A DNA stretch of 64,000 nt from an uncultured Gammaproteobacteria bacterium (GTDB lineage Bacteria > Patescibacteriota > Patescibacteriia > SBBC01 > CAIJZX01): positions 5,701-69,700 of the forward strand of contig CAZFGG010000004.1 of the NCBI GenBank assembly GCA_964518425.1, in the 5' to 3' direction. The notes beneath the pieces were generated by a model. That model made no database searches, was not told the origin of the DNA, and saw only the letters and a program-made list of their open reading frames with translations. A program made the position numbers and the translations under genes. Below are positions 38,025 to 62,231 of the stretch, piece after piece (positions within the stretch are counted from its first letter, which is position 1; each line of letters opens with the position of its first letter).

Positions 38025-38594
38025 ATGAAACGCCTACTCGCGCTGCTGGTTGTTAGCGGCGCCCTTATGGCCACGTCGGCCATGGCCGCATCATTGGTCG
38101 ACATCGACCTGGTCAGCTCGCCTGACGATCCGATTACTCAGGCCCAGACTATTCATCTGGACTCGGTCCGGGATTCGATTCAGGTCTTTACGAATCACTG
38201 GCTCGGTCTCAGCTTCTACGCTCGTGGGCGTGGGGCGGACAGTACGAGTTGGTTCGAACTGGACTTCGCGGCCGATTCCACCCTGCTTCAAGTTCAGGAC
38301 TACGGAAACGCCGCTCGTTTCCCAGCCGTCCCAGCCAAGGTGTTCAGCCTGCAAGTCTCCAGTTTTCATCAGATCTGTCCGTCGCTGCATGGCGACTTCA
38401 GCATCTCCGAGCTGGAGCAACATCCTAGCCAGCCAGGAAATGATCTGGAGACGACGAAATTGAAGCTGACCTTCAACCAGTATGAAGATGGAATGCCCTT
38501 CCCTTTGCAGGGCGTCATCACCATATCGCCGGTCTCGAGTACGTCGGCGGGGCCCATGTCGTGGGGAGAGTTGAAAATCTTGTACAACCGTTGA
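38025..38594 (+). CDS. Secreted hypothetical protein
   Basis: Signal peptide 'MKRLLALLVVSGALMATSAMA'. Confidence 0.45.
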   Translation: MKRLLALLVVSGALMATSAMAASLVDIDLVSSPDDPITQAQTIHLDSVRDSIQVFTNHWLGLSFYARGRGADSTSWFELDFAADSTLLQVQDYGNAARFPAVPAKVFSLQVSSFHQICPSLHGDFSISELEQHPSQPGNDLETTKLKLTFNQYEDGMPFPLQGVITISPVSSTSAGPMSWGELKILYNR

Positions 38595-38650
38595 CTTTCG
38601 TCAACACACCGCGCGTGACCTTCTGGCCACGCGCGTTTCTTTTTGTTTGT

Positions 38651-40774
38651 TTATCCGCCGGCGCAGGTCGACTTGCCGGTGTTACTGGTGATGATCAGAA
38701 CGGTTGGCGTCAGGAACGTGTTGCCGGCCGTATCGGTGACCGTCGTATTTAAGCGATGATGCCCATTGCAGTACAGGGCGGAGTTGAAGACAGCGGAATA
38801 GGGGGCAGCGGTTGAAACGAAGCCGGATTGATTATCGTCAACGTGAAATTGGACCGAGGCAATGCCGATGTTATCCGAGGCAGTCGCGGTCATAGTCGCA
38901 TCGCCCGTCATGGTTGTTTCGGCTGGCGTGCTGATCGATCCGGTTGGTAGGGTATCATCGACCACAAAGCTCAAGGTCGGCAGGGTCGTTGTTTGACCGA
39001 AGGTGTCTGTGGCTTTAACGATGAGGGTGTGACTAGCTAGGTTCGCTAAAGTGACATTCCGCAAGGACAGCCCCCAGCTATACGTTCCGAGAGCCGCATA
39101 CCACTGACCATCAATCTGTACTTCGACCTTTTGAAGGTCACCATTATCATCTGCCCGCCCGGCGATTAAGCACGTTGAGCAGAGATAGCGGCCAGCCGGA
39201 GATGAGTGACTGTTATCACTCGGCAGAACAAGCGAGAGAGTCGGTGGTGTTGTGTCCTGGCTCGTGTCTTTTGGAAACTCGAATTTCCCCATGTCAATAC
39301 GCGATCCGCCAACTGGCGGCGGCGGGGAAACTGGATCACCCCGGTCGATCGCTGGGCTACCATCTGATAGATTATACGATCCTCCGTCAAACAAGGGGTC
39401 AACGCCCGTTGAATGGACATCCTGACCGGTTCGCGCGATGAACGTCGTGATCGGCATAGACGAGGCGCCACAACACGAAGCCCAGTAGGTAATCGGCGTG
39501 GTTGAGCCGACACGCCAGAAGTTATTGTAGTCACCAAGGTACGTGCCCAAACCATTATCATTGAAATACATGGCCGGGGCGTCGTAGCTATAAAAAATAT
39601 TATTCCGGACATTCAATCTGCCCTTGCCATCAATAAGTAAGGCCCGGCCATGCAGGGCCACGACCGTGTTATTGGTGACGGTGGTCGTGGTCGTATTGTC
39701 TCCCACGCCGATAATCAGCGCCCCGCCATCGCTCGCGCTATTGGACGCGTAAATTGTGTTGTGGTCAAAGACGTCATTGCCGGTCGTCGTATCGTGCAAG
39801 ACGATACCACGTGTGGCGCCGGGCGGACCGCCAGAGCCACCGGAGAAGTAATTGTTTTTGATCAGGTTATCATGGCCCCAGGGTAACGTTTCATTGCCGG
39901 GACCATTGAAGCGTGCGGCATACTCGTTGGTTTTTTCGGTGTTCCCAATGAAGGTGTTATATGACGAGCCGTCACGGACGTACCACCCATATCGCTCCGA
40001 ACCATCGTTGAAACTCGGATAGGTGACGTTAAATGTGTTGTTCTTGAAGGTGTTGAAGAACGAGTAGTGGACTTGAATAGCGTTGCCCGTTCCGACAAAC
40101 TTGACTGGATTATTGTCAAAAACATTATTCCGGGCGAAGAAGAGCTGGATGTACCGGCTGTCTGACGTCGGGGCGGGTGTGGTTAGGCCGGTTTGAGCGA
40201 TAGAATTGTGAATAAAGGAATTGCCTTCAACATAGTTCAGATCAGTTCCTTTGAGTTGAATAGCCGCGAAGGCGTCGGCTGGAGTATAAATGAAGTTGTC
40301 CTGAAAAAGATTATCATCACTTGAAACTCCAAGATAGTTGAAGTGTGAGTTGATCACCTGATTGTGTCCGCCCCCGCCGAGGGAAATGCCACCGGGGATC
40401 GTTAAGTTTTTAATGACCACGCCCCTTCGATCAGTCAGGGTAATACTGTTGCTTCCCGTGACCTTGTGGGATTGTCCATCAAGCGTGACGTTATCAGCGG
40501 AAAAAGTGAAATTTCCGTTCCCGGCGATATCGCCTCCCAGGCAATACGTTTTTCCGCTTGATCCAAGCGTGTAGGGCAGGCTGTTGATAGTATAGTTACA
40601 AGCCACCGGTGTATTCGTATTGCCACTCCCTTCATTTCCACCAGAAATGAAAAAAATGATGGCGCTGGAAATAACAGATAGTCCACCAATGGCAATTGAT
40701 GCGACCAGAAAGACGCGGGTGAGAGAAATCACCTTACCTAGCGTGCTGGTTTTTTCTTGAGTCGTCATGGGCAT
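38651..40774 (-). CDS. Large secreted right-handed beta-helix (pectate-lyase-like repeat) protein with C-terminal Ig-like domains
   Basis: N-terminal TM/signal. Many 'NN.I..N' parallel beta-helix repeat units. C-terminal Big-like modules ('ASVQFHVDDNQSGFVSTAAPYSAVFNS'). Confidence 0.55.
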   Translation of the reverse strand: MPMTTQEKTSTLGKVISLTRVFLVASIAIGGLSVISSAIIFFISGGNEGSGNTNTPVACNYTINSLPYTLGSSGKTYCLGGDIAGNGNFTFSADNVTLDGQSHKVTGSNSITLTDRRGVVIKNLTIPGGISLGGGGHNQVINSHFNYLGVSSDDNLFQDNFIYTPADAFAAIQLKGTDLNYVEGNSFIHNSIAQTGLTTPAPTSDSRYIQLFFARNNVFDNNPVKFVGTGNAIQVHYSFFNTFKNNTFNVTYPSFNDGSERYGWYVRDGSSYNTFIGNTEKTNEYAARFNGPGNETLPWGHDNLIKNNYFSGGSGGPPGATRGIVLHDTTTGNDVFDHNTIYASNSASDGGALIIGVGDNTTTTTVTNNTVVALHGRALLIDGKGRLNVRNNIFYSYDAPAMYFNDNGLGTYLGDYNNFWRVGSTTPITYWASCCGASSMPITTFIARTGQDVHSTGVDPLFDGGSYNLSDGSPAIDRGDPVSPPPPVGGSRIDMGKFEFPKDTSQDTTPPTLSLVLPSDNSHSSPAGRYLCSTCLIAGRADDNGDLQKVEVQIDGQWYAALGTYSWGLSLRNVTLANLASHTLIVKATDTFGQTTTLPTLSFVVDDTLPTGSISTPAETTMTGDATMTATASDNIGIASVQFHVDDNQSGFVSTAAPYSAVFNSALYCNGHHRLNTTVTDTAGNTFLTPTVLIITSNTGKSTCAGG

Positions 40775-40877
40775 TGGTACGAGTTTCTCCTTAAGGAGTG
40801 TAGTCTATTTGGAGCTATATTGGCAACAAAGCCTAGGTTAGTAGTCCAAGCAGTTCTGACGTTCAGAAGAATCTAAA

Positions 40878-40900
40878 GCGCCCCCGAAAAACGGGGGCGC
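40878..40900 (-). terminator. Hairpin GCGCCCCCG-aaaaa-CGGGGGCGC downstream of the 40925..42256 gene
   Basis: Perfect 9-bp GC stem. The T-tract on the minus strand is short (TTT), so strength is uncertain. Confidence 0.5.
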
Positions 40901-40924
40901 TGGCTTGAAATTTTCCTCTTCAGT

Positions 40925-42256
40925 TTACGCCTTCACGAATATCAGCTTGAGGGTTTTTAGCAGTCGGCCTTTTGAAGTAACAGTGATAGTTTTCGTTCCA
41001 GCGCGTCTGGCTGAAAGCTTGAATGTCCAAATATTCGACTTAAAGGTTGGCTTACCGATGGTAATGAGTGGCGAGCTGATCAAGATAGGTTGGACCTTAA
41101 TGATCGTGCCGAATTTATTGCGGGTTCTGATTTGCACCGTGTACACCCCGGTACCATTGGCTTTGATACTCTTGCCGATAATCTTGTAGGTCGTCTTGTA
41201 TTTACTAATGGTCTTGAGGTTGGCCTGCTGGAGCTTCAGGCCGGCGGCCGTCATTTTGATGGTGTATTTCGGCGAGGAGAAGGTAATCGTTGAGACAGAC
41301 AAGGTTATTCCACCGGTAACGGCGTGAATGGTGAACGGTACGTCGCTGGTCGTGGTCGTGTCGCTGGTACGGGTGACATCAAGGGTGGATGTATCAACGT
41401 CGCCGCTCGCCAAACCGAATAGCGAATTGAGTACGGCTGTGGGAATAAAGGCCTCCATGCTACCGGTGTTGAGCGTCGTTCCATCCGCGAGGAAGTGTGG
41501 CGCGCCGAGACTGGCGACCAAACGCTTTGATCCGTCAGCAGCCGTCGAGGACGTAACCCAGCCGCCCATGGCTCCGGTGAGAGCGAAGTATGACCCGGCC
41601 ATATTGATTCCGACACCTGGTTCGAAGCTGAGGACGAATGACGCGCCGAGCACGTCTTCGCCGGATTTGTTGGCGTGGCAATCTGGTGGGACGGCCGTAC
41701 ATCCGCCAAAGTCGTCACCACTTCCGTGCGGCGTTCGTACGGGCGAGATCGTCGCATCGACTGAAGCCGCGGTGGTCCCAAGGTTAGCGGTCGTCCAGCT
41801 GCTGACCGAACCGTAAACCAAGGTGAACGTAAAGTTGGCGGCATTATCACCGAGGTTGGTCATGGTGATGGCGATTTTTGTGTCAGTCGTAACCGGGTCG
41901 CCCGTAGGAGTTGTGGCAATTGACAAATCGGAGGTGTTGCCTTGGTCGGTGTGCCAAATGACCGACACGCTCGTACGATTTCCTTTGGTCGTGTTTGGGC
42001 AAACCACGGCACCAAGAGAATTGAGCTCAGGATTAGCCGGGTCAGCAATAGCTGTTCCATCAACGGTCATGGAAGAAATTTGTGGCCGAACGACGCCTTC
42101 GCCGACCCAGGTCAGGGTCGTACTGCCATTGTCGCAGCTCGACTGGTCAGGCATGTTGAAGGTGGCTGCCTGGGCGTGAGCGTGAAGCCCAAAAATGCCG
42201 ATGATGGTGATCACGGCTGACGCGACGAATGTTCGTCGAAATGTATGTACCTGCAT
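40925..42256 (-). CDS. Secreted hypothetical protein with Ig-like/adhesin-like domains
   Basis: Signal peptide 'MQVHTFRRTFVASAVITIIGIFGLHAHAQA'. T/S/G-rich beta-sandwich-like repeats. Confidence 0.45.
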   Translation of the reverse strand: MQVHTFRRTFVASAVITIIGIFGLHAHAQAATFNMPDQSSCDNGSTTLTWVGEGVVRPQISSMTVDGTAIADPANPELNSLGAVVCPNTTKGNRTSVSVIWHTDQGNTSDLSIATTPTGDPVTTDTKIAITMTNLGDNAANFTFTLVYGSVSSWTTANLGTTAASVDATISPVRTPHGSGDDFGGCTAVPPDCHANKSGEDVLGASFVLSFEPGVGINMAGSYFALTGAMGGWVTSSTAADGSKRLVASLGAPHFLADGTTLNTGSMEAFIPTAVLNSLFGLASGDVDTSTLDVTRTSDTTTTSDVPFTIHAVTGGITLSVSTITFSSPKYTIKMTAAGLKLQQANLKTISKYKTTYKIIGKSIKANGTGVYTVQIRTRNKFGTIIKVQPILISSPLITIGKPTFKSNIWTFKLSARRAGTKTITVTSKGRLLKTLKLIFVKA

Positions 42257-44989: not shown

Positions 44990-45976
44990 ATGCCCCTCAC
45001 CACACCCCCCTTAGTGACCGTGCTGGTTCTGAATTGGAACGGCCTCTCGCATACATCCGAGTGCCTGCGCTCGCTCGAGCGATGCACGTACACAAATTTG
45101 CGAGTGGTCGTGGTCGACAACGGCTCAGCGAACAACGAGGCCGATCAATTGAGGAGTCTGTTCGCTGGCCGGATCAGCGTCTTTGCGGCTGGCCACAACC
45201 TCGGGTACGCCGGCGGCTGCAATTTCGGCCTCAAGAACATTGCTGTAACCGAATTGCCCGATTACCTGCTTGCCATCAACAATGATGTGGTCATCAGTCC
45301 CGATGCCATCGAGCACCTCGTTGCCGAGGCGGAGACCGATTCACGGTGCGCGATGGTGGCTCCCAGGCTCATGAATTATGTTCACCGAGAACGTGTGGAC
45401 AATCTCGGCCTAGCCCTCACGGTCACTGGCCTTGGGTTTGATCGCAAGACTGACCGCTACCCCTTATTCTGCCCAAATGGAGCCATGGCTCTGTATCGCT
45501 TTTCCGCGCTCTGGCAACTGCTAGGCATTCAAGGCGAGGTCTGGGATTCTGATTTTTTTGCTTACACTGAGGACCTCGACCTCGGTTTTCGACTGCGACT
45601 CCTCGGCTTCACCGCCAAGGCGTGCCCGAACGCCGTCGGCTACCACAAAGGCGGGGCTACCTCCGGTGGCGCCACCTCAGACTTCTCTCTGTACCAAGGT
45701 CACCGAAACAACCTGTGGTTTGTCGCGAAGGATTTCCCCAGCAGTATGCTGGCGAAACACAGCCTGGGAATCCTCGCTACGCAGCTCGGTACGTTCCTGC
45801 TCTACGCTCGCCGGCGTCGCCTCGGCCTCCTTCTCCGGGCCAAGTGGAGCGCGCTTCGGGGTATCCCTAGGATGATCATGAAACGCCGCCGCGTCCTCCG
45901 TCTCCGGCTACTCACCGATCAGCAACTCGCGGCAGTGATGATCCCGCGAGCTTACGTCTCTCCGTCGAGCACCTAG
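44990..45976 (+). CDS. Family-2 glycosyltransferase (rhamnosyl/galactofuranosyl-transferase-like)
   Basis: 'LVTVLVLNWNGLSHTSECLRSL...VVVVDNGSANNE', 'INNDVVISPD'. GT-A fold motifs. Confidence 0.75.
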   Translation: MPLTTPPLVTVLVLNWNGLSHTSECLRSLERCTYTNLRVVVVDNGSANNEADQLRSLFAGRISVFAAGHNLGYAGGCNFGLKNIAVTELPDYLLAINNDVVISPDAIEHLVAEAETDSRCAMVAPRLMNYVHRERVDNLGLALTVTGLGFDRKTDRYPLFCPNGAMALYRFSALWQLLGIQGEVWDSDFFAYTEDLDLGFRLRLLGFTAKACPNAVGYHKGGATSGGATSDFSLYQGHRNNLWFVAKDFPSSMLAKHSLGILATQLGTFLLYARRRRLGLLLRAKWSALRGIPRMIMKRRRVLRLRLLTDQQLAAVMIPRAYVSPSST

Positions 45977-46216
45977 GCGCGCCCGCCATTGACAACCCCC
46001 ACGTCTTGTTGTAGACCACATACGTATCACTAGTAACCACCGACGTTTCTGACTACCCGCAACACCATTCTCCTCAGCACTGCCGCCCTCGTCATCCTCC
46101 TCAGCGCTTGGTACGCCCTCCTTGGCGTTTCCCAGTCTTCCCGCGCAAACCGGAACCCAGCGTTCGCGCCAGCGAACAGCGGCCTCGCGAACGCCACGTC
46201 AAACACGGACACCTCC

Positions 46217-46738
46217 GTGAACCAGAACGCGTCGGGTAGCACGGCCACGGTGCCAGCGGGCTGGATGACGTATAACTCCGCCAATGCCGACTTCGCTCAC
46301 ATACGCGCTTACGACCCTTCCATCACCGTGTCGTACCCAGCCGACTGGAAGGTTACGGAGGAGCTTGGTGGCATCTACCTGGCCGAGGATGGCATTGGCA
46401 ACTTAGAGCCGCAGGTCAACATCACCCGCTCGACCACAGTGATTCATGGGGACCCTCTCGAAGCCTGCAAGTCGCAAGTAAGGGGCATCATCGGCCGGAC
46501 TCCGGTGTTTGACGTCGCGAAGCCGATGACCGTTGACGGCATTGTAAGTGCCTACATCGATTATCACCTACCGTCAGACGTGGAGACGCACTCGTCCGAT
46601 CGCGACGGCGTGTTTGTGTGCGTCCCTCTCCCGAACGCCACCGATTCGCTCTGGGGTCGCCCCCTCTCCTCGGAGCTCGTGCGCCAGAACTTCGACACCA
46701 TCCTTTCCACGTACCGGCTACACGCCAAGGGTACGTAG
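46217..46738 (+). CDS. Hypothetical protein, probably membrane-anchored (N-terminus unresolved)
   Basis: GTG start at 46217. The in-frame upstream segment 46052-46216 encodes a TM-like 'SALAALVILLSAWYALLGV' but contains no canonical start codon. Confidence 0.35.
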   Translation: MNQNASGSTATVPAGWMTYNSANADFAHIRAYDPSITVSYPADWKVTEELGGIYLAEDGIGNLEPQVNITRSTTVIHGDPLEACKSQVRGIIGRTPVFDVAKPMTVDGIVSAYIDYHLPSDVETHSSDRDGVFVCVPLPNATDSLWGRPLSSELVRQNFDTILSTYRLHAKGT

Positions 46739-46873
46739 GCGGGGTGGTTTGGCCGACGTTGTCTACCTAAGACACGGCTGCACGTCTTCACCGCAGCAAC
46801 CCTCGGCCGCTCTTTGACAATTGGACGTGCGGATCCGTCCGTGCGCCCAAACACAACCCAAAGGAGGGTCGTC

Positions 46874-49189
46874 GTGAGACGGATGTGCTGTCTGTTTGTC
46901 GTGGGCGCGTCACTTTTCCTCAGTGTGCCGCGGTCCGCGCAGGCTACGTGCCCTGGAAACTGGGGTGATTCGCTCGCCACCTACCGCAGCGTGGTGGCCA
47001 ACTCGAACGGCACGGACGTTGGCTGTTCGAATGGCAGCAGCTCGTACGGGTACAAGTATCAGTGCGTTGAGTTCGTGAAGCGCTTCTACGGAGAGGCGAT
47101 GCACTTCTCGTCAACGCCCTGGTCAGGTGACGGTGTCGACTACTATGGCTCCGCTGCCACCAAGGGATTGCGGCAGTTTGCTGACGGCGGGTCGGTGAAG
47201 CCCAAGGAGAACGATATCCTCTGCTTCTCCGGCAACACCTTCGGGCATGTCGGCATCATCACCGAGGTAGGCTCCAACTACGTCAAGATGATCGACCAAA
47301 ATCGCACCACCTCTGGGGGATCAAACAATCCGAAGCAATTGACCCTGAGCGGCCCGAGCGGTGGGTGGTCTATCTCGAGTTTCAGTGGCTCGTACCCCGT
47401 CCAAGGCTGGCTCCGAGGCTACACTTCGGACTACAAGGATCAGACACCCAGCGGCACCGCAACCCTCACACCAGGGCAGGCGCTGTACTTCAAGGTCCGG
47501 TACACGAACACGAGTCACGCCAACGCGCCGCATTGGAAGAACGACGGCGGGAGTCAGTCCGTCGAGCTGCGGTCATGCACGAGCACGGGAGTCGAGACGA
47601 GTTCTTTCCTGTACCCCGTGAGCGGTCAGACCACATGGCTTGATCCAACCGATCGCAAGCGCATCGTGCACATGACGGAATCGGACGTAGGAGGAAACAC
47701 GGGAGTCGCCACGTTTGAGTTCTGGGCCAAGGTCCCTGAGTCCGCGACGCTGGGGACGCACAACGTCTACTTCCGCCCCTACCATCAGTCTGGTCAATGG
47801 ATTGAGGAATGGGACGGGATGTACTTCTCAATCAATGTTGTTGCCCCAATACCCGATCCGGCGTACGGATTGATCCTTCGGAATCCCTCAACCGCCGAGT
47901 GGTGGACGAGGGTGTCGAACGGCTTGGCCTTCGCCTACCCGCCTGGAGCCAACACGCCAGCTGACCTTTGGATCTCCGGATGGGCTCTTGACGACGGCAG
48001 CTACACCTTCACTCCTTACGTCGGTGACTTAAACGGCGACACCTACGACGACCTGGTCGTCGAACGCAGTGACTGCAAGTGGTACGTAGCTTGGAACAAC
48101 CAAGACGGATCATTCACCTCGCAAGGATCACCGATTCTTAACCCGTGGGCCACGTCGCCGTCCCCTGGCAAATATTTCTTCTGGTTCACCAACGTGACCG
48201 GAGATGCCAAGGACGAGCTCCTGACCTACGATGCCTCTAACGGCAACTGGTACGTCTGTACGTTCAACACCAGCACGAATACCTTCGACAACTGCAGCAC
48301 CTGGTTGACGTGGGGTGGTGGTGTCGGAACGTTTCAGCCACTCGCCGGAGATTGGAATGGCGACGGCAAGAGCGATATCTGCCTGCGCAATCCATCCACC
48401 GGCAACCACTACGTCCGGTTATCCTCTGGCACTGGCTTCTACCAGGGCACGAACGACAACTGGATCGGCTGGGGCGCGGGCAGCGAGTTCATCCCGATCG
48501 TCGGAGACTGGAACGGCGACGGCAAGGACGACCTGATGCTATGGAAAACGTCCACCGGCGAGTGGTTCGTCCGAACGTCAGATGGCACGGCCTTCGTCTA
48601 CCCCTCGGGAAGCAACTCTCCGGCCGACCGCTGGATGGTCTGGGGCGATCCGAGCTACACGCTCTTTACGGGCGACTTCAATGATGACGGCAAGGTCGAC
48701 GTTGGATTACGGAATCCAAGCACTGGCGACCACTGGGTTCGCACCTCGACTGGCCTCGCCTTCACCCAACCCTCACCAGACAACTGGTTGGCAGGGTGGG
48801 GCGGTAGTTCCTACCAGCTGCTGACCGGACGGTTTGGCAACGGGGAGCTGGGCGGTGGGTTCTCGTTGCAGCCAGCGCCTCCTGAAGATGATCAGCCACC
48901 TCCGGCGGTGCCTCTGTCGTTCAGGATTTGGGTGGCACCAAATCCAACCACGTCGAATGCTACAGTCAACTTCGCCTTGCCGACGTCTGATCGGGCCAGC
49001 ATCTCGATCTACGACGTCAGTGGTCGTGAGGTAGCTCAGTTCCCCGAGGAACCCTATGGCGTCGGCCAGCACACGCTTACGTGGAGCAGGACCAGCCCCC
49101 GTGGAGGACGGGTGGCGGACGGCATCTACTTCCTGACGTTTCGGTCGACACTTCACACGATCAGCAAGAAGATCATTGTTCTCAACTGA
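46874..49189 (+). CDS. Secreted CHAP-domain amidase/peptidase with FG-GAP repeats and a T9SS-type C-terminal sorting domain
   Basis: SD AAGGAGG 6 nt before the GTG at 46874. Signal peptide 'MRRMCCLFVVGASLFLSVPRSAQA'. CHAP domain 'YQCVEFVKRFY...FGHVGII'. At least 5 FG-GAP units ('GDWNGDGKSD', 'GDFNDDGKVD'). C-terminus 'VAPNPTTSNATVNFALP...ISIYDVSGREVAQ...ADGIYFLTF...KKIIVLN' matches the Por_Secre_tail pattern. Confidence 0.7.
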   Translation: MRRMCCLFVVGASLFLSVPRSAQATCPGNWGDSLATYRSVVANSNGTDVGCSNGSSSYGYKYQCVEFVKRFYGEAMHFSSTPWSGDGVDYYGSAATKGLRQFADGGSVKPKENDILCFSGNTFGHVGIITEVGSNYVKMIDQNRTTSGGSNNPKQLTLSGPSGGWSISSFSGSYPVQGWLRGYTSDYKDQTPSGTATLTPGQALYFKVRYTNTSHANAPHWKNDGGSQSVELRSCTSTGVETSSFLYPVSGQTTWLDPTDRKRIVHMTESDVGGNTGVATFEFWAKVPESATLGTHNVYFRPYHQSGQWIEEWDGMYFSINVVAPIPDPAYGLILRNPSTAEWWTRVSNGLAFAYPPGANTPADLWISGWALDDGSYTFTPYVGDLNGDTYDDLVVERSDCKWYVAWNNQDGSFTSQGSPILNPWATSPSPGKYFFWFTNVTGDAKDELLTYDASNGNWYVCTFNTSTNTFDNCSTWLTWGGGVGTFQPLAGDWNGDGKSDICLRNPSTGNHYVRLSSGTGFYQGTNDNWIGWGAGSEFIPIVGDWNGDGKDDLMLWKTSTGEWFVRTSDGTAFVYPSGSNSPADRWMVWGDPSYTLFTGDFNDDGKVDVGLRNPSTGDHWVRTSTGLAFTQPSPDNWLAGWGGSSYQLLTGRFGNGELGGGFSLQPAPPEDDQPPPAVPLSFRIWVAPNPTTSNATVNFALPTSDRASISIYDVSGREVAQFPEEPYGVGQHTLTWSRTSPRGGRVADGIYFLTFRSTLHTISKKIIVLN

Positions 49190-49196: not shown

Positions 49197-49235
49197 CCTC
49201 CCCCCCTCTGTTTAAGAGGTGGGGGAGTTTTTTTT
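49197..49235 (+). terminator. Rho-independent terminator (CCTCCCCCCCTCT-gtttaa-GAGGTGGGGGAG + T8)
   Basis: Long GC stem then TTTTTTTT. It separates the plus-strand CHAP gene from the convergent minus-strand array. Confidence 0.8.
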
Positions 49236-49319: not shown

Positions 49320-50222
49320 TCAGATCGAGTGATGAACGACCAAGAGGATCGCGGCAGAGGTGGCGTTGATCGCATACTCGGCCTGCGCGGCAGTCACGCT
49401 GCGCGGCTGCGTGCCACCACCGTGGGAGGTGCTCAGGCGATTTCTCATCGTCGCGACCAAGAGCAGCGGCTGCTCGAAAAAGGTTTCCAGGCCAGAGTTC
49501 TTGATCACAGCGTCGAGAAGAGGCTTCGCGGTATCGGTCGGCTGAAAGGGCAAACCCTTGATCGTGCAGACAATTTTGAGCACGCTCTCAAACGCGCTGC
49601 CACACTTGGTCAGGCAGTCGCCGTAGTCGCCCTTGCGAAAATCTTCCAGGGCCTGCAGAAATTCTTTGTTCGCCGCCCCGAACCGCCCATCAGCGAGTAG
49701 TTCAAGCGTGGGACCGACAGCCATGGCGTGGACCACCTGGGAGTCTTTCCGGATCACCCGGGGAAACTCCGCGACCCGCTGCGCCTTTCCGCCTGGCCAA
49801 TCAGACGGTACCTCTTCCCACACATGCTGGGTAAGGGCGTAGGGCAGGTCGTCACGCTGAAGGAATACGTTGATGCTCTCGATCAGCGGCTCGAGCGCAT
49901 GGACCCACCTACCCTCGCCGTGGCGGAAGATCATCTCCAGTGCATCGAGAAACTGTGGGTCAGAGCATTGCATGAGCCAGCGACCCGCTTCATCGCGAGG
50001 ATCACTGCCCCTCACTCCGAGGGTCATCGTGCCTTGGAGGTACGCCAGTCGCTTCCACAGGTCCGTCCACGCGGCACCTTCGATGCCGGCTTGGGCAACG
50101 ACCTCCTGGAAGCGCATCAGGACGCGGGTGCGAAACTCCGTGGTCAATGGCTTCAGCGTCACGTTGGTCGGCGCGTGGGTGGGTCGTCGCGAGAACACAT
50201 CGAAGAGCTTAGAGAACTCCAC
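49320..50222 (-). CDS. AbiJ-like abortive-infection protein with C-terminal Abi_C/HEPN domain (gene D of the four-gene operon)
   Basis: C-terminus 'LLLVATMRNRLSTSHGGG...AAQAEYAINATSAAILLV': Rx6H HEPN motif in the RN..(S/A)HG context typical of Abi_C. Confidence 0.6.
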   Translation of the reverse strand: MEFSKLFDVFSRRPTHAPTNVTLKPLTTEFRTRVLMRFQEVVAQAGIEGAAWTDLWKRLAYLQGTMTLGVRGSDPRDEAGRWLMQCSDPQFLDALEMIFRHGEGRWVHALEPLIESINVFLQRDDLPYALTQHVWEEVPSDWPGGKAQRVAEFPRVIRKDSQVVHAMAVGPTLELLADGRFGAANKEFLQALEDFRKGDYGDCLTKCGSAFESVLKIVCTIKGLPFQPTDTAKPLLDAVIKNSGLETFFEQPLLLVATMRNRLSTSHGGGTQPRSVTAAQAEYAINATSAAILLVVHHSI

Positions 50223-50254
50223 GAGTTGCCCCTTCTGTCAGGGAAGGGCCGACG

Positions 50255-51259
50255 TCACCCCGTCTGGACAAGCTCGGCGTCAAACTCGGCACGAACCTCG
50301 GCCAGCGTGAGTGGCTCGCCCCAAAGGTTCCGCCGCGCCTCTTCGGGCAAGGACCAGAAAGCACCAAGCGTCTGATCGTCCCTGAAATGTTCGCGAAGCA
50401 CCCCGTCGGAGAAGATACGCCGCAGGCAGAAGCGAGCGACGGCCTGCACTTCGTGGGCGAGCTGCAGGATTCTGATGATCGCCTCTTGACGAACCGGCAT
50501 CGCAACCGATTCGAGGCGATCGTTCAAGTGCTCCACGGCGCTTCGAACGTTGAACAGCGCGCGTGCCCATTCGTGCTCCCTCGGACCCACAAATAATTCT
50601 GTGCGGCTTGCGAACTGCGCTTCCGTCTTACCTCGCTCCGGAAGGATGCAGCCTTCGATGGCACGCACAAACTCATGGATGCGCTCGGCAGGATCCTCGG
50701 CCTGCAGCCCGGCATAGAAGCACTTGACGGTCGCCCGCAGTCGACGAAAACCTTGAAGGTCTTGAACAGCTCCAAGCGCGTTGCCAAGCGTGGCCGCTTC
50801 TTCTAGCTCGGCCTGACGGATCGGATCCCAAAGCACACCTTGGTTCCGAAGGAGTACCGGGACCCAGCCGTGCTGCCGCACATCGACATCTGTTCCGTGT
50901 GCGCCAGTCAGCACAATGCCCCGGCCACCGGTTGCAATGCGTGGCGCCGCCAGCATGAGTCCGTAGTAGAGCATGAACGCCCGCGTTTGGAGCGCGGCGT
51001 TTTCTCCGTCCAGAAGATCCGGGGCGCTCGTCGGAGCTACTGCCCAGAGAAAAAGGCTCGCCTTGTGAAGCTCATCCCACCCGAGCGACCCAAGCCAGCC
51101 CTTCCAGTGGTCAGGCACACTCAGAGTGATGGCACGGGTCGCATGCAACCCATCGCCGAGCGCCAAGACCTCCGGCACCGACTCATCAACTCCAACCGCG
51201 AGCGCGATGAGCGCGTACTTATGTGCGGGTGGCGGTAGGTCAGGGGGTTTGTTGCTCAT
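50255..51259 (-). CDS. Hypothetical protein, possible HEPN-like (gene C)
   Basis: 'ALFNVRSAVEHLND' has Rx4H in a helical context. Otherwise unrecognised. Its start overlaps the gene B stop (ATGA). Confidence 0.35.
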   Translation of the reverse strand: MSNKPPDLPPPAHKYALIALAVGVDESVPEVLALGDGLHATRAITLSVPDHWKGWLGSLGWDELHKASLFLWAVAPTSAPDLLDGENAALQTRAFMLYYGLMLAAPRIATGGRGIVLTGAHGTDVDVRQHGWVPVLLRNQGVLWDPIRQAELEEAATLGNALGAVQDLQGFRRLRATVKCFYAGLQAEDPAERIHEFVRAIEGCILPERGKTEAQFASRTELFVGPREHEWARALFNVRSAVEHLNDRLESVAMPVRQEAIIRILQLAHEVQAVARFCLRRIFSDGVLREHFRDDQTLGAFWSLPEEARRNLWGEPLTLAEVRAEFDAELVQTG

Positions 51260-52437
51260 GCTTCAGATCGGAGCAGGCCTGAATCCGTGTCCCACGCCGT
51301 CCCGAGGTCCTTGGTCACGCCGACCACGTAGCTGATTGCATGTTTTCGGCCGACTTCTCGCCGCGAGGTGTAGTGATCGACGACATGGGGCAGCGTTCTC
51401 AAGCCAGCCGCGAAGAGCGCCAAAGCTGATGGCAGATTGAGCAGCGTCACTGCCGCAAGAGACAACGTCGGCAGCTTCCAATCCAAGAGATCCTTGAGGA
51501 CACCGGCAAAGAGCCGATCACGCGCTGACCGGAGCTCGTTTCGATACGCCAACACTCGTGGCGCGATCTCAGTCGCCAAGATTCGCGGGACGGCGTCTGC
51601 CACTTGGTCCGGTCGCAGCTCATCGAGTCGAGCGGCCAGCGCGTTAAGTTCCACCAACCAGGCCTCGTAGGCGTCTTTGGTGGCGGCGCGGTAATCGAGG
51701 GTGTCCTTGACGCTCAACCGTTCGAGCGCGCCATCCGGAATCACGGCTCGCATGATCTCCAGCCCCAAGTACGGCGTGATCGATGAGGTTGTCTGAACGT
51801 AGCGTGGTGACCCAAGCCGAAGCGCGAGCAGTCGTCCAAAATATGCCTCGTCGCTAACCGGGATCGCCCCGATTCCCTCGGCGACCACCATCGCTGCCGT
51901 GACATGTACCGACGCCGTCATCAGCTCCCGTGCCAGAATGTCCCGCCGCGCCCTTTGCTCGCGCGCGTCAAACGCTGCGTCATGATCAGCCATGTCCCAC
52001 TGCGGCTCCAGTGGGCCGTCTCTGAGAGATCGATCTTCGGCCAATGCTCGGACGATGTCGCGGCCCTTGAGGGTCGTACCCCGAACAACAAAGTCGCCGT
52101 CGAGCGCGATAAATTTTCGCGCGAAGCGATCGTCGTTCAGCCCATCCAGGAATGTCGCGCGGAACTCTGGATTCGTCACGTCCGGCTCGAGATAGCGGTT
52201 CAAGAGCTCCCCAGGCGGGCCACCTGGGGCTGGGTGCACTGCGATGCGAACGGGGTCGCTCGCCCCGCTGACGACGCGACGAAAGAAGGAATCATGGCCG
52301 ACCATCCCCCAGTTACCGAACTTGACGGCCGGGTAGTCCATGAAATTGATCTCATCGGCGATCAGGTTCAGCCGTTTGAGCGTGGCGATGTCGCAGCCGC
52401 TCTCGCCGACATAGAGAAGCTTCATCTGCGGAGTCAT
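51256..52437 (-). CDS. Hypothetical protein (gene B)
   Basis: 393 aa with no recognisable motif. 4-nt overlaps with both neighbours indicate translational coupling. Confidence 0.4.
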   Translation of the reverse strand: MTPQMKLLYVGESGCDIATLKRLNLIADEINFMDYPAVKFGNWGMVGHDSFFRRVVSGASDPVRIAVHPAPGGPPGELLNRYLEPDVTNPEFRATFLDGLNDDRFARKFIALDGDFVVRGTTLKGRDIVRALAEDRSLRDGPLEPQWDMADHDAAFDAREQRARRDILARELMTASVHVTAAMVVAEGIGAIPVSDEAYFGRLLALRLGSPRYVQTTSSITPYLGLEIMRAVIPDGALERLSVKDTLDYRAATKDAYEAWLVELNALAARLDELRPDQVADAVPRILATEIAPRVLAYRNELRSARDRLFAGVLKDLLDWKLPTLSLAAVTLLNLPSALALFAAGLRTLPHVVDHYTSRREVGRKHAISYVVGVTKDLGTAWDTDSGLLRSEA

Positions 52438-53690
52438 ACGCGGTCCGGTTGATTGGGCGCAGGCACTTCAAACACGAGAACGGTCAGTAACACCTCACGG
52501 GCGGGATCGTCACGATGGTGGAGGGAGTAACGAAAACTGGTCTCCGCGAGCTTGGCGTGTTCGCGAACGAACTCGGGCCGAGCTCGAACGACCTCGGGGA
52601 CCTTTTCGAGGACTGTAGAAAGTTTTCGTCCTCGGTTGAAAAGCAGGATGGCGGTTTTTGTGTCGCGCCACGTCGTGTACCCCATGAGTTGGGTGATGGC
52701 AGCATCAAACGCCTTCGGCCCTTCCCAGAACTTGCACTCGCCGATGAAAATATTTCTTCCGCGGATGCGGATAAGAATGTCCGTCTTGCCTTCGAAGTTG
52801 AAGGTTTCGCCTGTCGCCTGACCCTCGAATTGGCCGTTGAGCTGAACCAGAAAGTGCTGCCGGATGGCTTCCTCATCCATGGTCCGAAAGGCTTCCGGAC
52901 TTTGCTCCATGACAGCCACCATGTTGCTCATGATCCGAAGGATTTGCTCGTAGGTCTCCATGTCGAGCATCGGCTCGAGCTGCCCCGCAGCCGTGAGATT
53001 CGGAGTGGGCGGCATCGGCAACTTGCGCTTCACCTCCGGCACGGCGAACGTTTGAGGTGCTCCCTCACGCCGGCGAACCGGGAATCCGAGGCCTGCCACC
53101 ACGTCCTGGCTTTTGATCAGCCGCTCGCGACGGGCGTCAATCCGCGCTTGGGCTTTCCCAGGGAGGCTCTCGTTGAACGGCGCCACGTCGGTCGCGATCG
53201 TCGCGACATATCCCTTGATGTTCGCGAGGTCGCGATCGAATTCACCCTTGACTGCCGCTGGATCGTGGTCGGTTCGCAGGTAGGTGAAGTGGAGCTCGCT
53301 GCCCTGAACCGCAGCCCGTGGTGGGTTGTAGGTGTAGCTCGAAGGCCGGCACGTGAGGAGCGGCGCATCGCCTGAGAACGGTAGGTAGTAGGTGATTTGC
53401 GTTGCATTGGCGTAGACCGGGCCTTCGCGGTCTCTGTAGAACGCGAAATTGTTCGGATCGCGGCTGACGTCCTTCCGGCTTTCGGTCTGGTCGACCTGGA
53501 TCCTGTCCTCGTGGAGGACAATCGGGTTGATTCGGTACTTTTCGGCGAAGTAGGCGGCCAACTTGTCGGGCGGCGTACCGAGGAGTTGCTTGGCGTCCAT
53601 CGCGTCGACCTCCTGGTTCATGGAGGCCTCCTGCGCCCGCATCGCGCCACCAAGGTCGTTCTTGCTGAAGAGGAAATCTTCGCGAGGCAT
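52434..53690 (-). CDS. PD-(D/E)xK nuclease-fold protein (gene A)
   Basis: C-terminal 'GETFNFEGKTDILIRIRGRNIFIGECKFW' reads as E...D...ExK. The ORF track extends to 53768 but would overlap the recombinase stop by 26 nt, so an internal Met (e.g. 'MPREDF') is preferred. Start uncertain. Confidence 0.5.
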   Translation of the reverse strand: MPREDFLFSKNDLGGAMRAQEASMNQEVDAMDAKQLLGTPPDKLAAYFAEKYRINPIVLHEDRIQVDQTESRKDVSRDPNNFAFYRDREGPVYANATQITYYLPFSGDAPLLTCRPSSYTYNPPRAAVQGSELHFTYLRTDHDPAAVKGEFDRDLANIKGYVATIATDVAPFNESLPGKAQARIDARRERLIKSQDVVAGLGFPVRRREGAPQTFAVPEVKRKLPMPPTPNLTAAGQLEPMLDMETYEQILRIMSNMVAVMEQSPEAFRTMDEEAIRQHFLVQLNGQFEGQATGETFNFEGKTDILIRIRGRNIFIGECKFWEGPKAFDAAITQLMGYTTWRDTKTAILLFNRGRKLSTVLEKVPEVVRARPEFVREHAKLAETSFRYSLHHRDDPAREVLLTVLVFEVPAPNQPDRV

Positions 53691-53742
53691 GCCGTCCTGA
53701 ATAATTTCGTAAGAGGTTGAGCAGTCGATCCTGAGATTCAAA

Positions 53743-55734
53743 CTATGCCGATGTGGTTGACCCGTCAAGAGTTACACCAACGGTCAGGGTTGTGTCCGTC
53801 GGGCCGAGGACGCCTTCAAGCTTGAGCAGCGTGAGTCGGGACGGCGTGTAGGTTCCTAGCTCCGTGTTTCGGATGGTCCTGACGTGGATCCTTGCCCGGC
53901 TTGCCAGGTCATCCTGAGTTAGCCCGAGGCGGAGCCTAGCCGCTCGGATCCGTCCGGGCAGCCCGTCTCGCTCAGGGACGAGTCCTGAGCCAAGGACCGA
54001 TTCGATTGCTGGCCAGCGGCGAGACAGGGGCACGTTGAGGCCACGTTCCCAGCCGGCCACGGTCTGATACCAGCACCCGAGTTTCTTGGCGAGGGTTTGT
54101 TGCGTCAGGCCGACATCCATCCGCCGCTGGCGAATCCGGTCGCCCAAGGTGACGGGGCAGTGCGGATAACCCCTTGGGAACACACGCGGTCTGGCAGCGG
54201 TCAGTCTGAGAGCGGTAAAAGGCAACGCAACAGTGAAGTTGTGTTGCCTTTTACCTACGTCTTCGGCGGAGCAGGGAAAGGGGCTAAGGTCAATCTCGAC
54301 AACCTCCTTTCCCACCTGGATCTTCTCGACGATGGCTTCGATGATGGCCTGCTTTTCCTCGGCGGTGAGGGTCGGCCAGCGGGCATAGAGGTCGCGGGTT
54401 TCGGAGAGGATCTCATCCCGGCCGAGGAACTGAACCTTCAGGAAGTCCAGCTCCCCCTGAAGCCTGGGCAGCTCCTCTTCCAAGCCCTTCAGCCGCTCTT
54501 CGAGCGGGCGATAGGTCCGGCCGAATCCTTCGGGTGAAATCTGGTCGGTCACGTAGAGCCGATAGATCTTCTCCATCTCCTGCCGGACTTTGGTCAGGTC
54601 CCCATCCAGGCTGACGAGCCGCTCCTCCTTGGCTTTGATCTCCTCGTCAGCTTGCCCGAGGTGCCGAGCCACATCGTCGGGTGAAAGGAAGAAGTCCCGC
54701 AGCTGTTCATGGAAGACGGCTTCAAGATCGCCGACCGCGATCTTGTTCCGGCACCTTCGGCAGATGTATTTCCCGGCTTGGTAGCTGGCGTCGACGTACA
54801 TCTTGCCGCCACAGTGACAGTGGGCCACGCCAGCAAAGAGGTGGAGCGGCTTGCGCGCCGGTCGCTTCAGACGCTCTCGCTGCTGGTCGAGGATCGCCAG
54901 GCACGCCGCCCACGTCTCGGCCGGGATGATCGGTTCGACGGATGAGAGCACCCACTCATCCTGCGGCTTGAGCTTCCAGGCCTTCTTCTCTCCGAGCGAC
55001 TTCGTGTAGTTGGCCCGACGCGTGCCCTTGGCAATGGGATCACGCAGCAGCCGATCGATCGAGGTGTCAGAAAACTTTCCGCCACCCCGCGTGCGGTAGC
55101 CCTTCTCATTGAGTAGCCGGGCCACCGCTTTCTTGCGGCGGTGCTCGAGGAACAGCTCGTAGATGAGCTTGCGGATCGGCGCTTCCTGCGGGTCCGGCCG
55201 GAGCTGGCGGTCTTTCCACTGATAACCGAAGGGTGCAGCACCGCCGGTTGACTTGCCGAGCTTGGCGCGGATCGACACCGACGCGGCCACGCGCTCGCCG
55301 ATTTCCTCCCGCTCCCACTGCGCCATGGCCGCAATCATCGTGTAGAAGAGCCGGCCAGCCGGCGTCGAGGTGTCGATGGCCTCTTGGAGCGAGATGAGAT
55401 CGGCCCCGTCTCGCCGAAAAATATCCGCAAAGTCCAGCAGCTCTTTGGTGTTTCGCGCCAGCCGAGCCAGCTTTGAAAAAATCAGGCCTGTGATGTGGCC
55501 GCTGGCGATGTCCTGGAGCATCCGTTTCGCTTCTGGATGCCCCATCACGGATTTCCCGCTCACCGCTTCGAGGTGATAGACCTCGCGGATCTTCCAGCCC
55601 TTTGACTCGGCGTAGGCGCGGGCACGCCGTTCGTGATGCTCCGGGCTTTCGCCCCTGGCTTGGTCTTCGGTCGAGACGCGGATCCAGATCCCGACAGGCT
55701 TCGCCTGCTCGTGTGCCCCAGTCTTGGTGCCCAT
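53743..55734 (-). CDS. Large serine recombinase with two C-terminal XRE-family HTH domains
   Basis: Resolvase catalytic 'IWIRVSTEDQ', recombinase domain, zinc ribbon 'CHCGGKMYVDASYQAGKYICRRCRNK', coiled coil. Then 'LTQQTLAKKLGCWYQTVAGWERG' and 'LTQDDLASRARIHVRTIRNTELG' HTH_XRE-like units. Confidence 0.8.
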   Translation of the reverse strand: MGTKTGAHEQAKPVGIWIRVSTEDQARGESPEHHERRARAYAESKGWKIREVYHLEAVSGKSVMGHPEAKRMLQDIASGHITGLIFSKLARLARNTKELLDFADIFRRDGADLISLQEAIDTSTPAGRLFYTMIAAMAQWEREEIGERVAASVSIRAKLGKSTGGAAPFGYQWKDRQLRPDPQEAPIRKLIYELFLEHRRKKAVARLLNEKGYRTRGGGKFSDTSIDRLLRDPIAKGTRRANYTKSLGEKKAWKLKPQDEWVLSSVEPIIPAETWAACLAILDQQRERLKRPARKPLHLFAGVAHCHCGGKMYVDASYQAGKYICRRCRNKIAVGDLEAVFHEQLRDFFLSPDDVARHLGQADEEIKAKEERLVSLDGDLTKVRQEMEKIYRLYVTDQISPEGFGRTYRPLEERLKGLEEELPRLQGELDFLKVQFLGRDEILSETRDLYARWPTLTAEEKQAIIEAIVEKIQVGKEVVEIDLSPFPCSAEDVGKRQHNFTVALPFTALRLTAARPRVFPRGYPHCPVTLGDRIRQRRMDVGLTQQTLAKKLGCWYQTVAGWERGLNVPLSRRWPAIESVLGSGLVPERDGLPGRIRAARLRLGLTQDDLASRARIHVRTIRNTELGTYTPSRLTLLKLEGVLGPTDTTLTVGVTLDGSTTSA

Positions 55735-55740
55735 GGTTCC

Positions 55741-57003
55741 TTACACGCGGGGGCGTGCTTGTTTGCGCACTAGCTTCCGACCGTGAATCCGGTCGCGGCG
55801 GAACTTGAGTGCAGTCTGACGCACGGCGATCTCTGACTTCAACTTCGCTGCATCACGAGCCATTGAGAGAAATTGTCCGAGTTCTTCAAGATTTTCGAAC
55901 TTCCCGGAGAGCTGCATGGAAAACGTTAGGAGTTCGGCCACAAACCGATGGAGCTGCAAGGCAGCCTTGCGGGCATCGACACCACCCGTCCCGGAGTGCG
56001 CGGTGCCATTTCTCCGGTCACGAAGCATTTCCAAGACGTACCAGATCAGGGGTTCGTCCTCGTAAAGAAACCGGACTCGCTGGATCGTGGCGTCATAGCG
56101 ATCGCCGCCAGTAGCGGTCAGTGTTTCCAGCAGCGACCACAGCTGCAGAACCGTGACTTCGTGATCGACGCCATCCAAAGCCCGACAGTATCGGACCATG
56201 ATCCTTCGCAACTCTCGTCCGAGCGTTGTTTCCTTGATGGCGGCCCGGATGGCCGCGACCTGCTCAGCCATCCCCTGCCACTTTCCACTTAGATCGACAG
56301 AGAAGGAGTCCTTCACTGGGAAGAGCTCGTACCACCACACCTCTCCCGCTGGCTTTCCGTTCGGGAGATGCAGCGTGTGAATCGGGCCGATCCGGACTTG
56401 ATTGATCGGGACATTTTCGCGAGGGCCGAACTGACTCCACACCCGCCGGTTGAGAACGAAGTTCCAGATCCCTCGGACAAAATCTAGTCGCTCCAAACCG
56501 GCATCGAGCGCTTCGTTAATTGTCCGCGCGCGACCACTTACTCTGACGTGCGCCAGTCGAAGATGCTGCTCGCCGTACTCAGCCCACACATGCTCTGGCA
56601 CGTAGCTTCGATCGAAGCCCTTGGGCGGACCATCAGAAAAGGTCATGGTCCAACCGTCGAAGACCTGGCGAGTGAGTTTCGGGAAGTACCGGCACGATAG
56701 CGATGCCACGAGCACGAATGGCAGCTGTGGCTGAGCAAGGAAGCGGCGTGATCGACGGTCAAGCTCAGCCAGCAGGCGTGCTTTCGTAATGGCACCGGAC
56801 CCGGCGACCGTGGAAATAGCTTCCTGACAGAGGCCGAGCCGATCACGTTCCGACGTGGCCTCATCAAGCGGAGCGTGCACACTGAGTGAAGCGACGAGTT
56901 CATCGAACCAGGTTGAGTCAAACCCACCTGACGGCTTCTTGGCTCGCTCGAGTTCCTTGGCCACAATCTCCACGTCAACGATGCTCTTCAAATCGCGAGG
57001 CAT
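55741..57003 (-). CDS. HEPN (Abi_C / Swt1-like, RNxxAH) domain protein
   Basis: C-terminal 'YVLEMLRDRRNGTAHSGTGG' has R-N-x-x-A-H. The N-terminal ~300 aa are unrecognised. It lies 10 nt downstream of the HerA-like NTPase gene. Confidence 0.55.
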   Translation of the reverse strand: MPRDLKSIVDVEIVAKELERAKKPSGGFDSTWFDELVASLSVHAPLDEATSERDRLGLCQEAISTVAGSGAITKARLLAELDRRSRRFLAQPQLPFVLVASLSCRYFPKLTRQVFDGWTMTFSDGPPKGFDRSYVPEHVWAEYGEQHLRLAHVRVSGRARTINEALDAGLERLDFVRGIWNFVLNRRVWSQFGPRENVPINQVRIGPIHTLHLPNGKPAGEVWWYELFPVKDSFSVDLSGKWQGMAEQVAAIRAAIKETTLGRELRRIMVRYCRALDGVDHEVTVLQLWSLLETLTATGGDRYDATIQRVRFLYEDEPLIWYVLEMLRDRRNGTAHSGTGGVDARKAALQLHRFVAELLTFSMQLSGKFENLEELGQFLSMARDAAKLKSEIAVRQTALKFRRDRIHGRKLVRKQARPRV

Positions 57004-57013
57004 GCTACTTGGG

Positions 57014-60067: not shown

Positions 60068-60082
60068 GGGCGTCCCTTGCTT

Positions 60083-60772: not shown

Positions 60773-60858
60773 TGCGGTAGTTCTTTGAGGCCGGGAGGCG
60801 CCAACACCTGATCGCCCGCTTGGGCGTAATCAGAGCAGCGATTCGTTCGAGCCGCGGC

Positions 60859-61221: not shown

Positions 61222-61272
61222 ACGTTTGACGGTTAATCATGAGCTAACGCTCCCGGCCACATTCTTGAACGT

Positions 61273-62082: not shown

Positions 62083-62231
62083 GACTGCCTCCTGCTGACG
62101 GTTCGTCCTGTCCTTTCGTCCGGACCGTCACGGCCAAGCAGGGCCCCGTCATGGGGCTGAGGTGTCCGACAACGCCGCCGAAGCTACCGCAAGTTGGCGA
62201 CAAATGAAATGGCCTGAAGCGATGGGCGCTG

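Follow-up and report, generated by a model that had tools for sequence, protein, structure and literature searches.

The window analysed here, a stretch of 64,000 nucleotides from contig CAZFGG010000004.1, contains on its plus strand a gene (46874–49189) for a protein in which a CHAP head, an immunoglobulin (Ig)-like domain and an FG-GAP beta-propeller are followed by a type IX secretion system (T9SS) C-terminal domain (CTD). This protein, called the hydrolase below, is preceded by a gene for a partner protein (46037–46738), and both genes are located on a GC-rich island that adjoins the chromosome of a bacterium of the candidate phyla radiation (CPR). On balance, we read the pair as a bacteriolysin-like effector with its probable immunity partner, acquired on the island across phyla from a donor of the Fibrobacteres-Chlorobi-Bacteroidetes (FCB) type.

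Domain structure of the hydrolase

The hydrolase gene and its immediate surroundings are made up of the following elements:

46037–46738, plus strand: partner gene, encoding a transmembrane (TM) helix, an Asn/Ser/Thr-rich linker and a 150-residue Mog1/PsbP-fold domain
46862–46867, plus strand: Shine-Dalgarno sequence AGGAGG, read from the sequence
46874–46945, plus strand: Sec-type signal peptide, V/M-RRMCCLFVVGASLFLSVPRSAQA then cut before TC..., assigned by sequence inspection
47042–47302, plus strand: CHAP amidase/peptidase domain (PF05257)
47423–47848, plus strand: Ig-like beta-sandwich spacer, a conserved alignment block that is all-beta in the AlphaFold (AF2) model (predicted local distance difference test score, pLDDT, 77–91)
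47849–48847, plus strand: FG-GAP/VCBS beta-propeller of about seven blades (PF13517, PF01839; AF2 pLDDT about 85–95)
48848–48922, plus strand: proline-rich disordered linker (residues 654–678, pLDDT below 50)
48923–49189, plus strand: type-A T9SS C-terminal sorting domain, a beta-sandwich, with the stop codon (TIGR04183, PF18962, AF2)
49197–49235, plus strand: intrinsic terminator with a 13-bp G+C stem and a run of eight T, read from the sequence

The open reading frame (ORF) is intact from a TTG at 46814 to its end at 49189. The probable start is the GTG at 46874, at a spacing of 6 nt from the Shine-Dalgarno sequence, while the NCBI gene call (P0001, 768 residues, 100% identical to the window hydrolase) starts at the ATG at 46883. 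The arms of the terminator stem (49197–49209 and 49215–49227) separate the gene from a convergent minus-strand operon. Both signals had been described as strong in a preliminary description of this DNA, made from the letters alone, and both are borne out. Judged by inspection, the amino-terminus has the makings of a signal peptide, with a double-arginine n-region, a hydrophobic core and an AQA|T cleavage site; in the alignment, all homologues of the hydrolase have an amino-terminus of the same type.

The carboxy-terminal tail, taken in the preliminary description for a Por secretion (T9SS) domain, matches TIGR04183 with 41.8 bits (cut-off 23, E 7.9e-11) over residues 707–789 of 791, and the Por_Secre_tail family PF18962 with 32.3 bits (cut-off 27). 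It is located at the extreme carboxy-terminus, with beta-strands over residues 681–766 in the AF2 model; over these residues, FlgD_ig falls just short of its cut-off. A profile was built from ten CTDs of the family and searched against solved structures. It matches the T9SS CTDs of PorU (E 4.9e-6), of the F. johnsoniae substrates 8glj_D and 8glk_D, and of RgpB (5hfs), PorZ and mirolase, plus the Ig domains of FlgD. From these matches, the tail is to be regarded as a genuine type-A CTD rather than a chance pattern. It stands alone in the window, as had been noticed before: neither Pfam scans of all 47 large ORFs nor an unfiltered search of every ORF of 50 residues or more with a purpose-built CTD hidden Markov model found a second CTD, and no T9SS component family (PorK/L/M/N, SprA/Sov and the PorU/V core) has a match anywhere in the 64 kb. 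According to published work (PMC12398890), the T9SS is specific to the FCB superphylum, and nothing relevant came up when the literature was searched for T9SS CTDs from Patescibacteria/CPR or from Zixibacteria.

The CHAP assignment is equally clear, with 45.3 bits on PF05257 against a curated cut-off of 26. The catalytic motifs are a cysteine in YQCVEF, a histidine in GHVGII and an aspartate/asparagine in IDQNR, and residues C61, H122, D138 and N140 are invariant in the alignment of CHAP-headed family members. These residues align with those of trypanothione synthetase-amidase (PDB entry 2vob), the nearest solved CHAP structure by sequence (E 2.3e-7). For the Ig-like spacer, no Pfam family scores above its cut-off, and DUF4232 matches at E 0.035. 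The propeller is recognised by FG-GAP_3 (PF13517, 54.4 bits, cut-off 26.9, in five stretches) and FG-GAP (PF01839, 33.4 bits, cut-off 22.1), and carries five DxNGDGxxD loops. Mean pLDDT of the hydrolase model is 75.7, with confident Ig-like domain, propeller and CTD; residues 323–655, which make up the propeller region, are modelled confidently as all-beta. In a Foldseek search, the top match of the propeller is the teichuronic acid-bound UmbA4 (9oee_A) of the Streptomyces umbrella toxins (E 1e-15), followed by the fungal N-acetylglucosamine lectins PVL and AAL2 (E about 1e-8); integrin propellers also match.

Identity as a prophage protein or endolysin was considered and rejected, with one weak match of unknown function in PHROGs and matches at CHAP level only in IMG/VR. 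A plasmid-borne relative was likewise rejected, as PLSDB contains no full-length match of the hydrolase. A scan of GTDB genomes with the hydrolase gave matches mostly at the level of the CHAP domain.

A mosaic family and its partner gene

The whole architecture is rare, being shared by only about 15 proteins in a collection of 5.8 billion sequences. Their alignment shows a family scaffold in which a head of CHAP or M23 type is followed by the Ig-like domain, the propeller, the linker and the CTD, the Ig-like spacer being common to both variants. The parts of the window hydrolase have different closest relatives. Its head and Ig-like domain are 65–69% identical to those of family members P0005 and P0006, and 23–41% identical to those of the M23-headed members P0002, P0003 and P0004, the heads in the latter comparison being non-homologous. 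In the propeller, identity is 27–33% to P0005 and P0006 versus 69–73% to P0002, P0003 and P0004, with 71% to P0003, a copy from a CPR genome. The CTD is 27–30% identical to that of P0005 and P0006 and 28–44% to that of the three M23-headed proteins, P0003 being closest with 44%. The window hydrolase is a mosaic of shuffled heads and propeller/CTD tails. Since the same scaffold can carry an M23 peptidase instead of CHAP, peptidoglycan can be argued to be the target; from this exchange and the predicted export, we infer it to be the substrate of the CHAP domain. The family is uncharacterised; its members join a CHAP or M23 head to a lectin-like propeller and a T9SS CTD, and are paired with a partner of PsbP fold.

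In all ten genomic contexts that were retrieved, a partner gene precedes the hydrolase gene. The partners are about 210–280 residues long, with an amino-terminal TM helix and an Asn/Ser/Thr-rich linker. The window partner is 34–45% identical to the partners of CHAP-type members, which make up a single family; at M23 loci, other TM proteins with an Asn-rich stretch are encoded. The partners thus group by head type, and partner type co-varies with the head of the hydrolase. An exhaustive HMMER search retrieved 19 partner clusters among 1.84 billion representatives, and a word-index search with the window partner returned the partner itself as sole match. Two cysteines are invariant in the partner family, which, from the alignment, would fit an extracytoplasmic protein. 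The Mog1/PsbP fold is also found in immunity proteins of type VI secretion systems (T6SS), namely Tsi3, which acts against the muramidase Tse3, and TplEi; by analogy, this suggests that the partner may be an immunity protein. The description of the hydrolase as a cell-wall-targeting surface enzyme is therefore to be modified: its modular, wall-targeting make-up stands, while it is probably more than a surface enzyme, being one half of a cassette of partner and hydrolase.

Elsewhere, the cassette is found in Zixibacteria, an FCB-group phylum, to which loci L085 and L086 were assigned by their GlnRS and acyl-CoA carboxylase; family member P0013 is also named Zixibacteria. Locus L085 (5660–12397) contains two divergent pairs of partner and CHAP hydrolase in tandem, the hydrolases being 29% and 35% identical to the window hydrolase. 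After the two pairs, L085 encodes an ATPase with 38% identity to one on the window island, and DUF932, AbiEii and HsdR genes lie nearby. The tandem layout of L085 resembles that of polymorphic-toxin arrays. Locus L001 (CAZTQK010000001.1) has the gene order of L085 and near-identical match statistics; its label, 'uncultured Planctomycetales', is probably wrong and was not relied on.

In loci L082, L083, L088 and L089 (58–66% GC), the cassette adjoins a serine recombinase, a helix-turn-helix (HTH) protein and two RuvC-like genes, and in L083 and L089 also a HisKA_7TM kinase and two response regulators. The block of recombinase, HTH gene, two unknown genes and two RuvC-like genes occupies L083:13030–17689 and L089:12540–17213, where it lies as a whole in opposite orientation, so that it could be a module that inverts, or one that inserts independently. 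An analogous pair is present in the Patescibacteria locus L005 (2053–5390), where a TM protein with a PsbP-type motif, 'PAGW..Y..YPEGW', is followed by a secreted CHAP protein of 855 residues. The latter belongs to the same YQCVE subfamily and carries Cys-rich repeats and a different repeat domain, with no CTD.

The host chromosome, the island and their junction

The larger features of the window are these:

1–42256: host backbone, a Kerfeldbacteria-like CPR chromosome (gene content, GroEL identity, synteny with contig L081)
42320–64000: GC-rich island of about 60% GC, which runs off the window end (composition, gene content)
53743–55740, minus strand: large serine recombinase with two carboxy-terminal HTH_3 domains (PF00239 111.8 bits, PF07508 68.9 bits)
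57014–60082, minus strand: TrwB/TraD/HerA-like ATPase of 1022 residues, mad8-like (PF10412 52.7 bits; PADLOC mad8 7.5e-24)

Bases 1 to 38 kb carry housekeeping genes (YchF, FolD, GlyA, Lgt, GlmM, TrpS, RNase J, UvrC, UvrA, GroES/EL, PPDK, DnaG, RpoD), and the backbone also holds secreted proteins. The GroEL protein is 85–90% identical to its best relatives, and the top-ranked matches that bear names are 'Candidatus Kerfeldbacteria' or 'Patescibacteria group', the best of the named ones being Kerfeldbacteria at 85–88%. Because of these housekeeping genes and GroEL relatives, the backbone is assigned to a bacterium of the CPR (Patescibacteria). Patescibacteria have been proposed to be without an outer membrane (PMC12102498). 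A T9SS tag is all the more out of place next to such a backbone, where neither an outer membrane nor a T9SS is expected.

The gene order UPF0020 methylase, YchF to FolD, GlyA, Lgt and GlmM is common to the window and to L081, a 441-kb CPR contig from the Joint Genome Institute. This contig holds the M23-headed family member P0003, with a CTD that scores 26.4 bits on TIGR04183, on an island of about 15 kb that also contains two serine recombinases and ParB and has inserted between YchF and FolD. The flanks of the L081 island are both present on the one contig and are syntenic with positions 8–8779 of the window, at 43–71% protein identity. Since the L081 island has CPR sequence on both sides, uptake of this hydrolase family by Kerfeldbacteria-like CPR genomes is firmly supported. 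In the window, the same YchF–FolD interval (3049–4557) contains three small genes, including one for a Phage_holin_4_2 protein at 4177–4557, while in L081 (2953–17945) it is the 15-kb island with its two recombinases; insertions may recur in this interval. Between RpoD and the step in GC content, the stretch 38025–42256 encodes three secreted or surface proteins that belong to no known family: one of 189 residues, one of 707 residues with Big_7 domains and one of 443 residues. They have no relatives in the fetched loci.

The hydrolase gene had been placed on a GC-rich island, and composition agrees: GC content is 51–55% over 1–41 kb versus 59–62% over 42–64 kb, and the GC content of third codon positions (GC3) is 0.54–0.65 in the backbone versus 0.64–0.84 in the island. 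Within the window, the island spans at least 21.5 kb. From left to right, it contains small ORFs, a GT2 glycosyltransferase (44990–45976), the plus-strand genes for partner and hydrolase and, convergent with these, the minus-strand operon, with a type I restriction R subunit gene that runs off the window. The operon (49320–62160) is long, tightly packed and made up of defence-type genes. Besides the recombinase and the ATPase, its members are a DUF7014/Abi_C (AbiJ-like) protein, a trio of unknown proteins that includes a full-length match of the defence candidate PDC-S54 (52434–53771, E 1.8e-150), an unknown protein of 428 residues, and three small ORFs (60083–62160).

The island is joined to a CPR chromosome, and acquisition of the cassette from an FCB-type donor is therefore the most probable explanation. 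Cross-phylum acquisition, one of two options offered in the preliminary description, is thus the best reading, and the CPR backbone, as identified by GroEL, and the Zixibacteria cassettes strengthen the case for it. Several observations weigh against the reading of the cassette as an acquired bacteriolysin with its immunity protein, and some of them concern function. The solved CHAP domain nearest in sequence is that of a glutathionylspermidine/trypanothione amidase and not of a peptidoglycan hydrolase, and the Mog1/PsbP fold is generic, being also that of LpqN, PsbP and DcrB. The window partner has no ATG, GTG or TTG before its TM segment, which is preceded by a TAA stop codon at 46034–46036. 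Its first canonical starts, the GTG at 46217 and the ATG at 46265, give a protein without membrane anchor, and the database call for the partner, of 157 residues, lacks the anchor as well. An independent 1.7-kb Logan contig (SRR9179560) is 100% identical over 45368–47080, so that the missing start is no assembly error; this contig does not reach the junction. The window partner may thus be crippled, in which case the putative immunity would be defective, or may use a non-canonical start. The remaining points concern origin. The left junction of the island is the only one within the window. A search at this junction found no attachment (att) repeats, no tRNA and no shared sequence, the recombinase is not located at it, and the GC content of the island is un-ameliorated, which is compatible with a chimeric contig.

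These last points bear on the second option, an assembly or binning chimera, to which we give a real if small chance. According to this explanation, the sequence from about 42.3 kb belongs to another organism, of FCB type and about 60% GC, in which the hydrolase is ordinary T9SS cargo, and its link to the CPR is artefactual. Apart from a junction free of att repeats, tRNA and recombinase, it would account for the sharpness of the step in GC and GC3, at 42.3–42.65 kb, and for the lack of a return to CPR backbone to the right of this step within the window. The closest relatives of the hydrolase tail, P0002 and P0004, are moreover encoded on contigs of 58–61% GC, which matches the GC content of the island, and the nearest relative of the ATPase and recombinase, in locus L168 (65% GC), is adjoined by CTD proteins. 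However, L081 represents a second Kerfeldbacteria-like genome with a CTD-bearing family member in an island flanked by CPR sequence on both sides, and it is this copy, P0003, that has the CTD nearest to that of the window and a highly similar propeller. The junction itself is unique sequence, without the repeats that usually cause mis-joins, the deposited contig, on which the 100% matches of both GroEL and the hydrolase are recorded, is 90.7 kb long (90,694 nt), and there are no Ns in the window. An assembly join is weakened by L081, although in the window the left junction alone can be inspected.

The neighbourhood of the ATPase raises another explanation, in which the hydrolase is a conjugative wall-breaching enzyme like the VirB1-type proteins PrgK, TraG of pIP501 and CwlT, and serves DNA transfer by the TraD/TrwB-like ATPase. 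In its favour, the CHAP hydrolase shares the island with an ATPase that has TrwB_AAD_bind and TraG-D_C matches and with a serine recombinase, a related ATPase gene directly follows the cassette in the Zixibacteria locus L085, and contexts of the homologues hold DUF932, RadC, SSB and PDDEXK_1, which are typical of transfer leading regions; genes like those of type IV coupling proteins are also common in Patescibacteria (PMC12102498). Yet VirB4, relaxase and VirB6-like genes were not found within the window, and the island ATPase is far under the cut-off of every conjugation family, including all NCBIfam TraD-type ones, while it matches mad8 and a gene of the same operon matches PDC-S54. Full-length relatives of the ATPase were retrieved from 80 metagenomic contigs (38–68% identity), many from soil or peat judging by their names. 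A serine recombinase adjoins the ATPase in 37 of these loci, which span 37–67% GC, and the hydrolase cassette is present in none of the 80. The module of ATPase and recombinase is thus separate from the cassette and widespread. Its closest relative, L168 (66–77% amino acid identity, about 69% nucleotide identity, 61–71% GC), is adjoined by two CTD-bearing ORFs, which hints at a donor of the island that uses CTDs. A free secreted enzyme with lectin-like propeller, T9SS tail and shuffled parts is also unlike the membrane-tethered VirB1-like hydrolases, and a role in conjugation is improbable.

CHAP and M23 enzymes often serve cell separation, and a housekeeping autolysin or wall remodeller of the encoding cell, with the partner as its membrane regulator or anchor, would agree with a membrane-anchored partner always encoded beside the hydrolase and with the kinase and response-regulator genes that adjoin the cassette in L083 and L089, but it is very improbable, because the rarity and patchiness of the family (some 15 full-length hydrolases and 19 partner clusters, as given above), its island-borne mobility, its mosaicism and its tandem duplication with divergent copies in L085 are features of an accessory weapon.

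Proposed mechanism and comparison with known systems

If the cassette is a bacteriolysin-like effector with its immunity protein, as its behaviour makes probable by analogy, the following mechanism can be proposed. The hydrolase would be exported by Sec, and its lectin-like, seven-bladed propeller would steer it to a cell-wall glycopolymer, where the CHAP head, a Cys-His amidase or endopeptidase held at a distance by the Ig-like spacer, would cut peptidoglycan. The partner, anchored in the membrane, would protect the producing cell. In FCB hosts, the CTD would route the hydrolase through the outer membrane. Where that membrane is missing, as proposed for CPR cells, the signal peptide alone would suffice to place the hydrolase outside, and the CTD would stay uncleaved, as a relic or as a repurposed extra beta-sandwich. 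The cassette would move on mobile or defence islands that carry recombinases, in this case presumably from the FCB group to the CPR.

In 'Candidatus S. epibionticum', epibiotic growth requires homologues of peptidases and lysozyme (PMC12102498), and because of this need, use of the hydrolase against neighbouring or host cells is plausible by analogy. A bolder extension, speculative and rather unlikely, is that CPR episymbionts capture bacteriolysin cassettes from FCB bacteria and deploy them by Sec alone to breach the walls of neighbours or hosts, with the orphaned CTD kept and put to new use, perhaps to anchor the protein at the surface or S-layer, or as an extra binding module. If so, the donor lineage of the island would indicate a physical partner of the Kerfeldbacteria-like organism. 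If the linkage of island and backbone is real, a cargo gene specific to one secretion system has crossed from the FCB group into a CPR organism unable to use its tag. This would bear on how far CTD matches can be trusted as taxonomic or secretion markers in metagenomes, on gene uptake by CPR bacteria from their neighbours and on the lytic enzymes CPR cells may use. Leaving aside the question of the host, this small uncharacterised family provides candidate narrow-spectrum bacteriolytic enzymes.

When known systems are compared, the VirB1-like hydrolases PrgK, TraG-pIP501 and CwlT share with the window hydrolase a CHAP domain encoded on a mobile island with a coupling-protein-like ATPase. The window hydrolase differs in having a propeller and a CTD and no membrane tether, on an island that, within the window, is without VirB4 or relaxase. 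The glutathionylspermidine/trypanothione synthetase-amidases (2vob; NF007801) have the same YQCVEF...GHVG...DQN motifs as the window CHAP domain. However, they are cytoplasmic and act on polyamine-glutathione amides, whereas the window protein is predicted to be exported and has a head that M23 peptidoglycan peptidases can replace.

With T9SS type-A cargo such as RgpB, PorU and the F. johnsoniae substrates, the hydrolase shares a Sec signal and a carboxy-terminal beta-sandwich of about 85 residues that scores above the cut-offs of both families. It differs from them in adjoining a CPR chromosome, with no T9SS gene or second CTD in the window, and its CTD is about equally close to the Ig-like domain of FlgD and to the solved CTDs. 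In comparison with the T6SS pairs Tse3–Tsi3, Tae–Tai and TplE–TplEi, the window cassette has a Sec signal and a T9SS tag, is without a T6SS and has the partner gene first; the fold match of the partner is to the generic Mog1/PsbP superfold.

The propellers of umbrella toxins bind species-specific wall glycopolymers and so set the target range (PMC13274773, PMC11062931). UmbA (PDB entry 9oee) and PVL-type lectins are the best structural matches of the window propeller, at a sequence identity of 13–16%. UmbA is part of a multi-subunit particle, while the window propeller is fused to the enzyme itself.

Class III bacteriocins, such as lysostaphin, zoocin A and enterolysin A, consist of an M23 or other peptidoglycan hydrolase head and a wall-binding domain, with an adjacent immunity gene, and are encoded on mobile DNA. 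They have SH3b domains and an immunity protein that is a FemABX-type wall modifier, where the window cassette has an FG-GAP propeller, a PsbP-fold membrane partner and a T9SS tail. The likeness extends to a secreted CHAP or M23 head joined to a predicted wall-binding module, a neighbouring partner gene, a mobile island and the shuffling of parts, and it is by analogy with these bacteriocins that a lytic role is proposed for the hydrolase.

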